Shown: positions 36,144 to 42,910 of the stretch, in pieces
Position numbering within the stretch: the stretch's first letter is position 1
How the letters are laid out: every line of letters starts with the position of its first letter
Assembly: GCA_963695545.1 (NCBI GenBank)
Contig: OY968796.1
Location: forward strand, 2,528,001-2,592,000
Source: Terriglobia bacterium
GTDB taxonomy: Bacteria > Acidobacteriota > Terriglobia > Acidiferrales > UBA7541
Direction of reading: 5' to 3'
Length of the DNA stretch: 64,000 nucleotides
The notes under the pieces: generated by a model
What the model saw: only the letters and a program-made list of their open reading frames with translations
What the model was told of the DNA's origin: nothing
Databases searched by the model: none
Program-made: the position numbers and the translations under genes

Positions 36144-37223
36144 TCAGATGGCCTTGACGTGGGAAAGGCGGTAGGGCGTGCCGATGTTTTCGCGCAGCTC
36201 GAGCCAGAGTGAATCCGGCAGCGAAAGAAAAACATCGACCACTCGCGGATCGAATTGCGTGCCGGAGCAGCGATTGATTTCAGCGCGCGCGTACTGAATC
36301 GACAAGGCCTTGCGGTAAGGCCGGTCCGAAATCATGGCATCGAGCGCGTCGGCCACCGCGAAAATCCGCGCCCCGAGGGGGATTTCCTCGCCCTTCAGTC
36401 CTCTCGGATAGCCGGTTCCGTCAAAATATTCCTGGTGCGCGAGCACGATTTGCGCCGCCTCGCGCAAGAACGGGATGCGCGTGACCATGTTGTACCCGAT
36501 CTCGCAGTGCGTGCGCATCACTTGCTTTTCCTCTTCGTTCAGAGGGCCGGGCTTGCGCAGCACGCTGTCGGGGATGGCCATTTTGCCGATGTCGTGCAGG
36601 AACGCGGCGCGCGCGATCACCGGCAAATTCTGCGGCGGAACTTTCATGGTTTTCGCGATGGCGATGGTGAAGGCTGTCACGCGCTTGCAATGGCCTTCGG
36701 TCTCCGCATCTTTTAAGTCCAGCGCGCCGCCCAGCGCCTCGAGCGTGTCGTCGTAAGATTGTTCGAGTTGCTGGAGCGTGCCCTTGAGCTGCCCCGTGCG
36801 CTCCTCGACCAGGCGCTCGAGGTCGCTCTGATATTTCCGGTTTTCGAGCACCAGGCGGCGGTGATCCAGTGCGCGCCGCACGCTCAAGAAAAGTTGGTCT
36901 TTTTCAAATGGCTTCAGGATGTAGTCGTAGGCCCCGCGGCGAATGGCTTCGAGCGCGGTCGCGATGTCGTGCATCGCGGTGACGATAATTACGGGGACGT
37001 CCGGGTCGTGCTGATGCACCCATTCGAGCAGCCGGATGCCGTCCATCTCCGGCATCACCATGTCGCTCAGCACGAGGTCGGGAGTGTTGTGCTCGAGATG
37101 TGCCTTCGCCAACCGCCCATTCCCGGCGGTCGCGCAGTCGAAGCCCTGCGCTTCGAGCATGGTCGAGACGACCTCGCGGATCGCCTCCTCGTCGTCGACC
37201 ACCAGGATATTGCCCTTGTGCAC
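36144..37223 (-). CDS. Response regulator with HD-GYP c-di-GMP phosphodiesterase domain (RpfG-like)
   Basis: REC domain (VVDDE, SDMVMPEMDG, KPF); LHDIGK; HQEYFDGTGYP; DRPYR. Confidence 0.93.
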   Translation of the reverse strand: MHKGNILVVDDEEAIREVVSTMLEAQGFDCATAGNGRLAKAHLEHNTPDLVLSDMVMPEMDGIRLLEWVHQHDPDVPVIIVTAMHDIATALEAIRRGAYDYILKPFEKDQLFLSVRRALDHRRLVLENRKYQSDLERLVEERTGQLKGTLQQLEQSYDDTLEALGGALDLKDAETEGHCKRVTAFTIAIAKTMKVPPQNLPVIARAAFLHDIGKMAIPDSVLRKPGPLNEEEKQVMRTHCEIGYNMVTRIPFLREAAQIVLAHQEYFDGTGYPRGLKGEEIPLGARIFAVADALDAMISDRPYRKALSIQYARAEINRCSGTQFDPRVVDVFLSLPDSLWLELRENIGTPYRLSHVKAI

Positions 37224-37374: not shown

Positions 37375-37932
37375 CTAATTTGCGCCGGCTTGTGTGGGAC
37401 CCGGCTCCACGAGGCTGGTCATCGACGCTTCCAAGCGAGTCGCCAAGCTGCCCACCAGGCGCGTCAGGCGCTCAAAGGCCGGAACCGGCACCTCGCCGAG
37501 CGCCAGACGCATCGAAACGGCGGCGTACACCATCCGGAAGCGAATGCCCAGCCTCAAGCGCTCCGCTTCCTGGCGCGCATCCACTTTCGGAGAAAGCGCC
37601 GCGACCATCCGGCCAAATTTCTCGAGGCGCAGATAGTCCTCGCGCAGACCTTGCAGATAGCGCCGCGCCACCTTGCGCCGCTCCGTGCGCAGCGCGGCCC
37701 GCATTCTGTGCGGGATGCGTCGTCCAAGCTCGGCCAGGTCCGATCCGGAGAGCGCCTGGCGCACGAGGGGAAAATATTTCGCGTGGCGAGGCGTCAGATC
37801 TTCTTGGGAGAGATTCGGCAGTTCGGCGCGCGTCGCGCCGCCATGTCGCCCCAAGCGACGCGGCCAGACGAGCACGGCCACCAGCGCCAGCAAGGCAATC
37901 CCCGAGGCGACGAAAAGAAACGCTTCGCTCAT
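37375..37932 (-). CDS. Single-TM hypothetical protein with basic helical cytoplasmic domain
   Basis: N-terminal TM; Arg-rich helices; ATGA overlap with the upstream 7-TM gene. Confidence 0.75.
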   Translation of the reverse strand: MSEAFLFVASGIALLALVAVLVWPRRLGRHGGATRAELPNLSQEDLTPRHAKYFPLVRQALSGSDLAELGRRIPHRMRAALRTERRKVARRYLQGLREDYLRLEKFGRMVAALSPKVDARQEAERLRLGIRFRMVYAAVSMRLALGEVPVPAFERLTRLVGSLATRLEASMTSLVEPGPTQAGAN

Positions 37933-38750
37933 GACTTTAGCAACTCCAGCAGGCGCGCATTGAAGGTCCGCAACCTAAAGTTGACCGCCGGAGAAAGCTC
38001 CCGATACGCCGAAGCGGGCAGCAAGACGGCAGCGAGGCCAACGGCGGGAATGGGTTTTCTCAAAGCTACGGCCCACAGAAGCAGAACGCCGCCCAGAGCG
38101 AGGCCTGGAGCAGAATTCCACCAGGTTTGCGCGTGATCCAGCCAGGCACGGTAACCGAGCCAGCCCGGAAGATGCGTTTCGGCGGCTTGAAACATCATGG
38201 CGGTGGTTATCACGCGGGCAACGGAATAAACGCACAGCCCGATCGCGATGCTGCGCTCGAGCGAATCCATCTCAAGCGTGTAATAGCGGCCGATCAGCAA
38301 CAGGGAGATCAGCACGCCCGTGGCCATGAGCTCCAAGTCTCGCTCGAGTGCCAGTACGAAAGTGTCCAGCCGATACGGCCGGGCGGCCGATTCGTACGCC
38401 GCATGGAACAGAAAGAGGAACGACACCGCCAGCAGGATTCGCCAGGCCAGCGCCCAGATGCCGGGATAGGCGCGCAGAAGACGGAAGCACAATTCACCGA
38501 TGGCCAGTCCCCACGCGGCCAAAAGAATCGCGCGCGCGATCCACGCGGCGTCGTACGCGGTCCACGAACCAAAACCGAATACGTGATATATGACCCACAA
38601 AGAACCAGTCGCTGCCACCATCAGGCTCAGATACGCCGTGAAAAACGGGAGCCTGCGGCGCAGACCGTTCCGGTAGGCCAGAGCGCACACCAAGACTTCA
38701 AGCGCGGATGTAACGACCCAGATCGCGTAGTTCAGATGGTTTAGATGCAT
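37929..38750 (-). CDS. 7-TM hypothetical membrane protein (candidate receptor)
   Basis: Seven hydrophobic segments and an amphipathic C-terminal helix. Start reassigned to MHLNHLNY (38750). Confidence 0.75.
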   Translation of the reverse strand: MHLNHLNYAIWVVTSALEVLVCALAYRNGLRRRLPFFTAYLSLMVAATGSLWVIYHVFGFGSWTAYDAAWIARAILLAAWGLAIGELCFRLLRAYPGIWALAWRILLAVSFLFLFHAAYESAARPYRLDTFVLALERDLELMATGVLISLLLIGRYYTLEMDSLERSIAIGLCVYSVARVITTAMMFQAAETHLPGWLGYRAWLDHAQTWWNSAPGLALGGVLLLWAVALRKPIPAVGLAAVLLPASAYRELSPAVNFRLRTFNARLLELLKS

Positions 38751-38950
38751 CGCGGCCGGGGTCCATGGTAGCACATATGACTGTGGAGTACTTATCGGAT
38801 TTGGTTGCGGCCCGCCGGCCTCCGGCCGCGTCGCACCGGAGGGGCCCAGCGTCGCAAGACTGATGGCACTGTTCGTACTGTGCCGCTTGCTACGTGAGCC
38901 CCGGCGCGAATGCGTCATCCACCTGCTTATCCCCTGCTGGCACGGCCTCT

Positions 38951-39100
38951 TCAGGCGACGGGCGGCGGCGGGACAGGGGGTGTCGGGTCTTCGGCGGACA
39001 GAATCTGATTAGTCGAAGAGTGATTGATGTGCGAGGCAACAGGGAGTACGATGATCGTCGTCAAGGCCACGGCGAGCAACAACGTTGCAATCGTTTTCAT
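38951..39100 (-). CDS. Small secreted Pro-rich peptide precursor (49 aa), absent from ORF track
   Basis: Hand translation: MKTIATLLLAVALTTIIVLPVASHINHSSTNQILSAEDPTPPVPPPPVA*. AGGAGG RBS upstream; Sec-type signal peptide. Confidence 0.8.
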   Translation of the reverse strand: MKTIATLLLAVALTTIIVLPVASHINHSSTNQILSAEDPTPPVPPPPVA

Positions 39101-39159
39101 GGGTTTGAACCCTCCTGGGCGCGCACTGTCGCACCGCGCTTCGGAATCGGCTCAGAACC

Positions 39160-39639
39160 ATGGAAAAAGTTCAGAAAACGGAACGCACGGAATATATGGA
39201 AACGCTCGAACGATTTCGGGGCAGCCGGCGCGTGGTGGAGGATTTCACGCGCCGCTCTCTTTCCGCCATTCCGAGCGGCTACGGACGATTGATCTACGTC
39301 AGTTCATTGCGCGAGAGCGACGATCGCTACCGGCACGACGGCTTGGCCTCCCTATATCCCGATAGCGCCGTGCAGCCCGCCTTGGAGCACTGCCACGAGG
39401 AATTGTTCTCGCAGATTCTGGAGACGCCGCTTTCGCAGCAGGAATGGGATTTGCGGATGTCTTTGGCGGCTCTCGAAGGTGGACTCGAAACGAATCTTGC
39501 CCTTTGGCGCAAGCGAGAGCGGTACGAGGAACTCGAACCGCGCGAATTGCCGGACTACCTATACGATTTGTTCGCGTCGAATTTGAGGCTGCTTTTGGAG
39601 CTGATCGAAGCCGACCTTAACGTTCGACAAGCCGCATAA
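39160..39639 (+). CDS. Hypothetical alpha-helical cytoplasmic protein
   Basis: Divergent from the peptide gene; GRLIYVSSLR...YRHDGL...ALEHCHEELF...EWDL. Start could be 39196. Confidence 0.7.
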   Translation: MEKVQKTERTEYMETLERFRGSRRVVEDFTRRSLSAIPSGYGRLIYVSSLRESDDRYRHDGLASLYPDSAVQPALEHCHEELFSQILETPLSQQEWDLRMSLAALEGGLETNLALWRKRERYEELEPRELPDYLYDLFASNLRLLLELIEADLNVRQAA

Positions 39640-40357
39640 CCACTCCTACGACTTGGCCCACGATCTCGGCTTCCTGGGGCATGCGCCGCACTTCCGGTTT
39701 GCAGGGCGAAAGCGGGTGCGGCTGCAGGCTCAGCGACCAGCCGTCACGCAAACACCAACTGCACCGGTAACCGTCCCGAACGTCAATAAAATAGAGCGGG
39801 CGCTCGTATTCGTTGGTCCATCCGGAATCTCGCACTTGCCGCAGCGCTGGATCGACCAGTACCAGGCTGCCGGGCCGCAGCAGCGGGTCCATCATGCGGT
39901 CTTCCAGGCCGATATAGCCGTAGCGATACCGCTGCGGCCCGTTGAAGAGCACGCCCTCGAGCTCTCCCCATCTTTCCACCATGCGCGAGAGTTGTTCCGT
40001 GCGCCGCGGATCGAAGCCGGGATCGAATCGCATCGGGAGTTGCATCGAACTCGGCGGCGCCGCCAGATGTGTCGAGGGCGCCGCTAGCTGAGTGCTGTCG
40101 GCAAAATGCTTGTCGAAGGGCACATCGTACCAGCGGCAGATTTCACGTGGATCGAGGTGGTAGATCGCGGCCAGAGCGTAGAGTTTGTAAAGGCTGGGTG
40201 TGACCTCGCGGTTTTCGATGTCGGCCAGACGGCTGAGATGGACGATAAATTCCGGACGCCCATGCTGCGATGCGAGATCGTAGCTAGCCCGCTCCACGTC
40301 GCGGTATGTCAAACCCAATTGCTCACGTGCCTTTCGCAGGCACGAGCCAGCGTGCAT
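39617..40357 (-). CDS. XRE-family HTH regulator with C-terminal S24/LexA-like beta domain
   Basis: LRKAREQLGLTYRDV...SRLADIEN..VTPS HTH; EDRMMDPLLRPGSLVLVD...EIVGQVVGV. Promoter TTCATA-N17-TACAAT upstream. Confidence 0.82.
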   Translation of the reverse strand: MHAGSCLRKAREQLGLTYRDVERASYDLASQHGRPEFIVHLSRLADIENREVTPSLYKLYALAAIYHLDPREICRWYDVPFDKHFADSTQLAAPSTHLAAPPSSMQLPMRFDPGFDPRRTEQLSRMVERWGELEGVLFNGPQRYRYGYIGLEDRMMDPLLRPGSLVLVDPALRQVRDSGWTNEYERPLYFIDVRDGYRCSWCLRDGWSLSLQPHPLSPCKPEVRRMPQEAEIVGQVVGVVMRLVER

Positions 40358-40525
40358 AGCTTTCCTCGGTATGGCGATCCGAAGGCTTCACAATTGTAGC
40401 AGGTAACCATTCCGTTATGAATCCAGAACAAGCGGATCGACGCCCGGTCCCCTCCGGGCCGTTCCGGACTGGTTGCCCGTTTGCCCAGAACTGACGATTG
40501 GAATATAATGGTATTCGTGAAGAGA

Positions 40526-41383: not shown

Positions 41384-42910
41384 ATGAGCACGTCTCGATT
41401 CCGCCGGGTGATCCCGAGCATGATGCGGCGGATCCGTGGCTTGGCGATTCTTTGCGTCGCGATGTTGCTGGTCGCTACCGCGTGGGCGCAGCAGACTCCG
41501 TCTTCGGCTCCTTCTTCTGCGCCGTCATCCGCGCCTACGGTCGCGCCTTCGGCGTCCGCTCCTGCTCCTGACGCGTCTTCCGCCGCGACTCCCAACGGTA
41601 ACGCCGATTTCTTCGCGGCAGCGGATGACGTTCTGGCCGAAATGAGCAAGCTGCTCTCCATGCCGATCCTCCATCCGGTGAAAAAAAGCTTGCGCTCGCG
41701 CGACGAGATTCGCGCTTATCTGCTCGCGCAAGAGAAAAAAGAGAAAGACTCCGCGAAAGACTACGCCGATCAGCGCACGCTGGAAATGTTCGGCCTGCTG
41801 CCCAAGGATTTTCCGCTCGAACAAACTCTCAACGACATTTTGACCGAGCAGATCGCCGGCCTCTACGATCCCGACAGTCAGGAATTTTTTATTTCCGATT
41901 GGACCGAACCCGCCGAACAGCGAATGATCATGGCGCACGAACTGACGCACGCGCTGCAGGATCAGCATTATCACATTGACGCGTGGCGCGACGCCGCCAA
42001 GCCCAACGACGACGCCGAACTCGCGCGCGATTCCGTACTCGAGGGCGCCGCAGTGGCGGCCATGATCGATTACATGTTGCGCGACGAAGGAAAAGGGGTG
42101 CGCGATTTACCCGCGGTCGATCCTTCGCTCATCCTCGGCGACACCGCCAGCAGCCCGCTATTTTCCAAGGCGCCCATGGTGATTCGCGACGAGCTGTTGT
42201 TTCCGTACCTCGCGGGAATGACGTTCACGCAAGCGATCCTGAAAGCCACGAATGGCTGGCCCGATTTCGGCCGCGTGTTTGCGAATCCGCCTCAATCCAC
42301 GCAGCAGATCATGCATCCCGATCTTTATTTGCATGGCGTGACGCGCGCGCCGGTTACGCTGCCGGATTTTTCGACTTTGCTGCCCGCCGAGTGGAAGCAG
42401 TTGGACGCAAACCTGATGGGCGAATTCGGCTTGCAGGAAGTTTTGAAACAATTCCTGACCGAATCGCAGGCTCTGAGCATGGCGCCGGCGTGGGCCGGAG
42501 ATCGTTACGCAATTCTTGAGAATCAGCAAACCAAACAGGATTTGCTGATTTTCCGGCTGCGCCTGACCAGCGAGGCAGACGCCGGGCGGTTTTTCGATCT
42601 CTATAGCGACGTGCTGGAATCGAAAGATAAAACGCGCACGAATTTGCTTCGCCGCCCGAATTTCTTCTCGTTCGATACGCCCGCGGGCGGCGTCTTCCTG
42701 CGCTGCGTGGGTGACGAGTGCCTGGCCGCCGAAGGCACCAAACGGGACATTTTCGATCGCATCACGCACGCGATGGGCTGGCCCGCCACGACCGCGCCGA
42801 GCGAACGTGCGTGGCCTACCGATTCCGCGCCGGCCAACATCACGATGCTTTCTCCATCCGCGCTTCCCAATGCATCGAAAAGCTTCGCCGCAACTGCTTC
42901 GCCTCCCTAG
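41384..42910 (+). CDS. Exported zincin-type metallopeptidase-like protein
   Basis: Signal peptide, Ser/Ala/Pro linker, IAGLYDP, AHELTHALQDQH (HExxH), EGAA, FPY and PPQSTQQIMHP. Confidence 0.78.
   Translation: MSTSRFRRVIPSMMRRIRGLAILCVAMLLVATAWAQQTPSSAPSSAPSSAPTVAPSASAPAPDASSAATPNGNADFFAAADDVLAEMSKLLSMPILHPVKKSLRSRDEIRAYLLAQEKKEKDSAKDYADQRTLEMFGLLPKDFPLEQTLNDILTEQIAGLYDPDSQEFFISDWTEPAEQRMIMAHELTHALQDQHYHIDAWRDAAKPNDDAELARDSVLEGAAVAAMIDYMLRDEGKGVRDLPAVDPSLILGDTASSPLFSKAPMVIRDELLFPYLAGMTFTQAILKATNGWPDFGRVFANPPQSTQQIMHPDLYLHGVTRAPVTLPDFSTLLPAEWKQLDANLMGEFGLQEVLKQFLTESQALSMAPAWAGDRYAILENQQTKQDLLIFRLRLTSEADAGRFFDLYSDVLESKDKTRTNLLRRPNFFSFDTPAGGVFLRCVGDECLAAEGTKRDIFDRITHAMGWPATTAPSERAWPTDSAPANITMLSPSALPNASKSFAATASPP

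Follow-up and report, generated by a model that had tools for sequence, protein, structure and literature searches.

Peptide signaling is known mainly from Gram-positive bacteria, where it proceeds via kinases or TPR regulators. The locus presented in this study belongs to a Terriglobia bacterium of the phylum Acidobacteriota (assembly GCA_963695545.1, contig OY968796.1, forward-strand positions 2,528,001 to 2,592,000; this stretch of 64,000 nucleotides is called the window, and coordinates are counted from its first letter). It consists of genes for a short peptide precursor, a seven-transmembrane protein (7TM), a single-transmembrane partner (1TM), a cytoplasmic helical protein (HEL) and an XRE-type HTH regulator (Table 1). 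Among described systems, those closest to it differ in their parts. In the LytTR regulatory systems (LRS) HdrRM and BrsRM, the regulator sites lie just 5' of the -35 element (PMC6193735). [quoted passage not shown]

The five-gene module is real, widespread and undescribed, and it would work like peptide quorum sensing. No description of it was found in a literature search that fell short of most subscription papers and supplements, so that supplementary family lists (e.g., of PMC13581589) could hold the 7TM protein. On balance, and with somewhat better than even confidence, we interpret the module as a peptide-sensing system without a kinase, in which a GPCR-fold receptor is combined with feedback through XRE. 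A sequence-only reading of the window had proposed a kinase-free, receptor-like system that may feed into cyclic di-GMP (c-di-GMP) turnover. Its five open reading frames (ORFs) were found again at the same positions, and peptide linkage, synteny and the lack of a known 7TM family spoke for its proposal, while the c-di-GMP branch did not hold. The peptide-sensing interpretation is strengthened by the GPCR-like fold, the variable outer half of the receptor and the operator feedback described below.

A peptide gene linked to a receptor-like membrane protein

As noted in the sequence-only reading, a 49-aa ORF with a signal peptide and a Pro-rich end precedes the 7TM gene. The precursor, whose gene follows a strong AGGAGG ribosome site, is composed of a basic N-terminus, a hydrophobic core, a spacer and a Pro-rich core (residues 37-49), and is predicted to be exported. 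ORFs with a basic start, a hydrophobic 10-mer, at least two Pro after residue 20 and an end within 500 nt were found upstream of 7TM in 84 of 107 loci, compared to 6 of 107 on the opposite strand, a count that leaves out ten duplicate or unpublished loci and four contig ends, still includes one duplicate pair and two matches later dropped as unconvincing, and counts as misses some real peptides farther upstream. The peptide ORF is thus beyond chance, as expected by the sequence-only reading for homologous 7TM loci.

The core is repeated two to six times in 38 of 82 precursors, and 57 of the 82 fit a [DE][GPS]..PxxP core. The window core begins after LSA, an LxA boundary, and agrees with the alignment. 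An A|DG junction occurs at 78 of 98 listed core starts; cleavage would fall between LxA and D(G). Bryobacterales- and Terriglobales-type precursors (L180-L226) have Cys-containing cores of the PxCxPC type, which suggests disulfide-looped variants. At seven loci (L042, L090, L101, L102, L159, L162, L167) the 7TM gene stands in tandem, in two or three copies, behind a single peptide gene.

The AlphaFold2 (AF2) model of the 273-aa protein has seven long helices and a C-terminal helix, with N-out/C-in topology and GPCR-type helix order, and a GPCR-like fold is predicted from it. The yeast receptor Ste2 (7ad3) stood at row 10 of the fold-match list (E 0.15), and there was no transporter or membrane enzyme among the 50 matches listed. 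The outer half is variable, and the cytoplasmic half and C-terminal helix are conserved. Pfam, NCBIfam and PHROG gave no family for the peptide, 7TM, 1TM or HEL proteins, and no Pfam family was common to more than one of 64 7TM members; the known transporter or enzyme family that would have spoken against the sequence-only reading was not encountered in Pfam or NCBIfam. A Pfam or NCBIfam kinase domain was present in 0 of the 64, and the 273-aa protein stops after a 40-residue tail. No longer fused forms were found among 8000 candidates of 546-2000 aa, which is weak evidence. A single 464-aa record (P0105) joins TM1-6 of 7TM to a HAMP-histidine kinase at an abrupt junction; it is possibly a chimera or mis-assembly, or a rare fusion. 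Microbial rhodopsin identity was rejected by the test for a retinal-binding Lys: in any TM7 column, a Lys is shared by at most 3 of the 64.

The 185-aa 1TM protein has a single N-terminal transmembrane segment and a basic helical cytoplasmic domain. Its gene is translationally coupled to that of 7TM: the ATGA overlap claimed earlier was observed again, and across 82 loci the overlap measures 4 nt in 61 cases and 1 nt in 9. The pair appears to have its own short-leader promoter via an extended -10, which was noticed by eye in many upstream regions, uncounted, and is absent from the promoter-scan listing.

Multi-core precursors are typical of ribosomally synthesized and post-translationally modified peptides. 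It is decidedly improbable, in our estimation, that the peptide is instead a Pro-rich antagonist or natural-product precursor, with 7TM-1TM serving immunity or maturation and XRE regulating production. The repeated cores, the Cys-containing cores of some lineages and the HExxH peptidases flanking the module in two lineages would fit such a role, but families of modifying enzymes or transporters are absent from the module, E86 is the one acidic residue conserved in 7TM, where a catalytic motif is not recognizable, the cores are neutral or acidic, and the module is near-core and rarely viral.

XRE and its predicted operators

Two gene orders recur among 7TM-anchored loci. Layout A is that of the window; in layout B the order is peptide-7TM-1TM-HEL, and XRE is convergent. 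Several genomes carry both. A second set, anchored on XRE, comprised the best 80 of 591 matches and is biased to layout A. It had HEL in 80/80 loci, 1TM in 70, 7TM in 69 and the peptide in 62, eight missing-gene cases being contig ends, so that the XRE and helical-protein synteny on which the sequence-only reading depended is kept.

In layout A, 39 of 42 loci (3.2 in shuffled sequence) carry an 18-bp palindrome, TGTTC-N8-GAACA, at a distance of 80-105 nt upstream of the peptide start; in layout B, TGCTT-N8-AAGCA precedes the peptide gene in 21 of 22 (1.4 shuffled). Palindromes also occur at XRE promoters, in 11/17 loci of layout A, 11/23 of layout B and 65/79 of the XRE-anchored set (5.1 shuffled). 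The recognition helix tracks the palindrome, with xSRL..IE paired to TGTTC and SNAWL.Q.E to TGCTT. This switch is the best evidence that XRE reads these sites, and the predicted targets of XRE are the palindromic operators of the peptide gene and of the XRE gene itself.

A position weight matrix (PWM) trained on relatives and scanned over the genome ranked the two module operators first (39168-39185) and second (40413-40430), with no excess elsewhere. The XRE regulon in this genome therefore looks confined to the module, and HEL or the peptide itself would be the probable output of the circuit. Past the peptide operator, only a T tract, an A at +39 (25/32) and a T at +43 (23/32) are conserved. 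If the A/T pair is a weak -10, the operator center falls near -58, an activator position, which suggests that XRE activates the peptide promoter. The operator at the XRE gene overlaps the -35 of the XRE promoter, whose -10 is TACAAT (40398-40393).

XRE matches Pfam HTH_3 (E 1.6e-5); among 47 family members only HTH domains were matched, and there was no TPR match. The C-terminal domain resembles S24 weakly by hhalign (E 0.0037, probability 9%). At the position of the S24 catalytic Ser, 33 of the 47 have T, 11 have M, 2 have S and 1 has Y, and the Lys is unaligned; the domain would be a degenerate, weakly S24/LexA-like one that lacks the Ser-Lys pair. Neither the operators nor this domain had been recorded in the sequence-only reading. 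A self-cleaving repressor of the LexA/CI kind was rejected, as the 47 members lack the catalytic pair. C199 and C202 (CxWC) and H214 are near-invariant (45, 47 and 46 of 47); they may make up a metal site at the place that the catalytic Lys has in S24 proteases. Solo XRE-family copies without the module were also seen (L227, L228, L232, L235-L238); two of them lie on viral contigs, and one has a recombinase-like ORF nearby.

HEL is a cytoplasmic all-alpha protein with invariant Y57, H59, H79 and P127, for which no known fold was found. As claimed earlier, its gene is divergent from the peptide gene and converges on that of XRE, a convergence kept in all loci examined; in the window the 3' ends of the HEL and XRE genes overlap by 23 nt. 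The earlier start at 39160, 59 nt from the peptide start, did not stand. A Met lies 12 residues before a [VI][IVL]xD motif in 35 of 50 homologs, equal to Met13 of the window ORF, and the 12 extra codons would cross the operator; the start is therefore probably 39196, which gives a protein of 147 aa and a distance of 95 nt to the peptide start.

Tests of co-variation between core, 7TM, 1TM and XRE

The sequence-only reading had suggested a check of peptide and receptor co-variation. The hypervariable cores co-vary with the outer half of 7TM, a signal that holds at 30 loci. XRE and 1TM also show a partial correlation of 0.32, and three loci retain 1TM with XRE/HEL only, 7TM and the peptide being missing.

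The single-TM nature of the SLC51 partner and the SH3-like barrel held within the S24 fold lend some appeal to a different arrangement, which we hold to be distinctly unlikely: 7TM-1TM would import the peptide, and its core would bind the dead S24-like domain of XRE in the cytoplasm, an RRNPP-like logic with new parts. The cores are PxxP-rich, and the combination of a GPCR-like 7TM and an obligate partner is known from the transporter SLC51A/SLC51B (PMC13581589). Core and XRE were partially correlated at 17 loci (r 0.205, p 0.019), but this signal fell to p 0.12 at 30 loci while that of the outer half held. Conservation of the XRE C-terminal domains (57%) also far exceeds that of the 7TM outer half (25%), and the S24 likeness of these domains is weak.

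Distribution

Close homologs come from Candidatus Acidiferrales records, and relatives with titles are metagenome assemblies of Acidiferrales, Bryobacterales and Terriglobales. A profile built from 23 7TM homologs gave 950 clusters at 50% identity, and a broader one was positive in 294 of 401 genomes of the host's class, a tally that includes seven unpublished genomes (by family: f1 74/74, f3 72/75, f102 69/72, f4 58/70, f100 7/31, f101 0/35). HEL was present in 130 of 301 genomes, including two unpublished. In a sample of the phylum, XRE occurred beyond the class in one family only (4/8), and the module was there too (L229, L230, L233). The module is near-core in several families and rarely viral. 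Four-gene forms without HEL exist (L061, L094, L108, L109), the 1TM of the last three having been missed by the first 1TM profile.

This near-core status in families f1 and f3, a two-membrane host, a regulon confined to the module and an LRS-like logic with a membrane-held autoregulated factor (PMC6193735) would all suit a periplasmic self-sensor, in which the peptide would not leave the periplasm and would inform its producer cell on the state of export, proteases or the outer membrane. We consider this unlikely, if deserving of some weight, since cores that are hypervariable and co-vary with the outer half of the receptor, multi-core amplification and the presence in one genome of several insulated copies whose operators differ fit identity signaling better than a housekeeping sensor.

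Some observations weigh against kinase-free peptide sensing with XRE feedback. In family f102 the module is split into unlinked XRE+HEL and 7TM+1TM pairs (L244-L255; L075, L079, L086, L089, L093, L099, L111), and a peptide was found beside neither of the two. XRE is missing from the surroundings of many peptide-7TM pairs, which calls for either further outputs or an action of XRE in trans. These pairs include a second copy in the genome under study (L119, G000:C1 ~1084250-1085840), with a four-core precursor, a distant 7TM (E 2e-8) and a coupled small membrane ORF, near which there is no XRE, HEL or operator.

Neighboring genes

The HD-GYP response regulator that the sequence-only reading placed downstream of 1TM was confirmed by Pfam, and in part of the Acidiferrales-type loci it is adjacent on the same strand. 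That the module feeds it, and through it c-di-GMP turnover, is nonetheless very improbable: it follows the module in only 11 of the 80 XRE-anchored loci, all of Acidiferrales type, it has its own TATAAT (37249-37244), and the matrix scan detected no XRE operator at its gene. An 85-aa zinc-ribbon gene accompanies it in 10 loci, as plain synteny predicts.

On the other side, the window encodes a signal-peptide HExxH protein (41384-42910, plus strand) that NCBIfam matches to the Hvo_1808 family (E 8e-30, under the cut-off). Its gene adjoins XRE in 31 of the 80 loci, all Acidiferrales-type, and the protein is a candidate processing peptidase, or else plain synteny. A HExxH protein of a different, SprT-like family (PF10263) follows 1TM in 18/80 loci of Bryobacterales type, for example L179:6277-7047 (-) and L006:2929-3432 (-).

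Table 1. Coordinates of the module, its predicted control elements and its neighbor in the window.
Feature	Coordinates	Strand	Basis
XRE-HTH regulator, 246 aa	39617..40357	-	Pfam HTH_3; S24 hhalign; conservation
Predicted XRE operator at XRE gene, TGTTC-N8-GAACA type	40413..40430	.	Site counts vs. shuffled; PWM
HEL, ~147 aa, probable start (longest ORF from 39160)	39196..39639	+	Homolog starts, conservation
Predicted XRE operator between peptide and HEL genes	39168..39185	.	Palindrome counts; PWM
Putative weak -10 remnant, peptide promoter	39125..39130	-	Conserved A/T pair past operator
Peptide precursor, 49 aa	38951..39100	-	Signal-peptide/Pro filter; core alignment
Putative extended -10 (TGnTAnnAT type), 7TM-1TM pair	38765..38773	-	By eye
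7TM protein, 273 aa, N-out/C-in	37929..38750	-	AF2 model; fold matches; conservation
1TM partner, 185 aa	37375..37932	-	Overlap counts
REC-HD-GYP regulator; neighbor, not core part	36144..37223	-	Pfam; 11/80 loci; own TATAAT

Proposed mechanism and significance

In the mechanism that we favor, the predicted exported precursor would be cut to free its Pro-rich cores, which likely bind the outer pocket of 7TM. The signal would be relayed from 7TM through the coupled 1TM to XRE, which 1TM may hold at the membrane and then release. XRE would activate the weak peptide promoter in a positive feedback, and HEL may be a cytoplasmic modulator or an output of XRE. To a more elaborate version we give somewhat less than even credence: a pheromone-like system with a stand-alone GPCR-fold receptor, an alpha-factor-like multi-core precursor, a phosphorylation-free relay that runs through the single-TM adaptor and through a cytoplasmic protein of new fold and ends at an XRE activator, and several insulated peptide/receptor/operator channels per genome. 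In that version, bacterial cell-to-cell signaling would gain a new class, and peptide-GPCR recognition a living model in bacteria.

Four module proteins belong to no known family. If true, our interpretation would add a new signal-transduction class in a near-core module of a soil lineage that ranks among the most abundant. It would also give a stand-alone bacterial GPCR-fold protein its first clear peptide ligand, bearing on the origins of 7TM receptors. The system is tractable, as the cores are short, linear and synthesizable, the operator is defined and natural variants provide cognate and non-cognate pairs.

Comparison with known systems

Tests of membership in Agr/ComCDE, RRNPP, LRS, rhodopsins and LexA/CI failed, and the likenesses are partial. 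As in Agr and ComCDE, a precursor is encoded beside a polytopic membrane sensor and a transcription factor, and positive feedback is predicted for the peptide gene; linkage of the peptide gene (export predicted from sequence) to the sensor was found in 84/107 loci vs. 6 in the control. Unlike them, the module has no histidine kinase, receiver, LytTR domain or AgrB (no AgrB or ABC processing transporter family was detected among its proteins in Pfam or NCBIfam), uses a linear multi-core Pro-rich precursor with a Sec-type signal in a two-membrane host, and adds two extra proteins of no known family. RRNPP(A) systems also pair a small Sec-type precursor, sometimes multi-copy, with an XRE-type HTH regulator, but XRE lacks TPR (0/47 members), and a membrane 7TM is linked to and co-varies with the peptide. 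The multi-copy secreted precursor recalls fungal alpha-factor, and the stand-alone N-out/C-in 7TM, with its GPCR-like fold and cytoplasmic C-terminal helix, recalls Ste2 and other peptide GPCRs. There is no heterotrimeric G protein or arrestin among the module genes, nor are these known from bacteria.

The LRS HdrRM and BrsRM (PMC6193735) share with the module a kinase-free membrane protein and an autoregulated transcription factor whose sites lie immediately 5' of the -35; the module differs in using XRE-HTH rather than LytTR and an 18-bp inverted repeat rather than direct repeats, and in adding a dedicated peptide, 7TM, its 1TM partner and the cytoplasmic HEL. With the fused bacterial 7TM sensors (PMC13581589), it shares a GPCR-like fold used for sensing, whereas the 7TM of the module stands alone.
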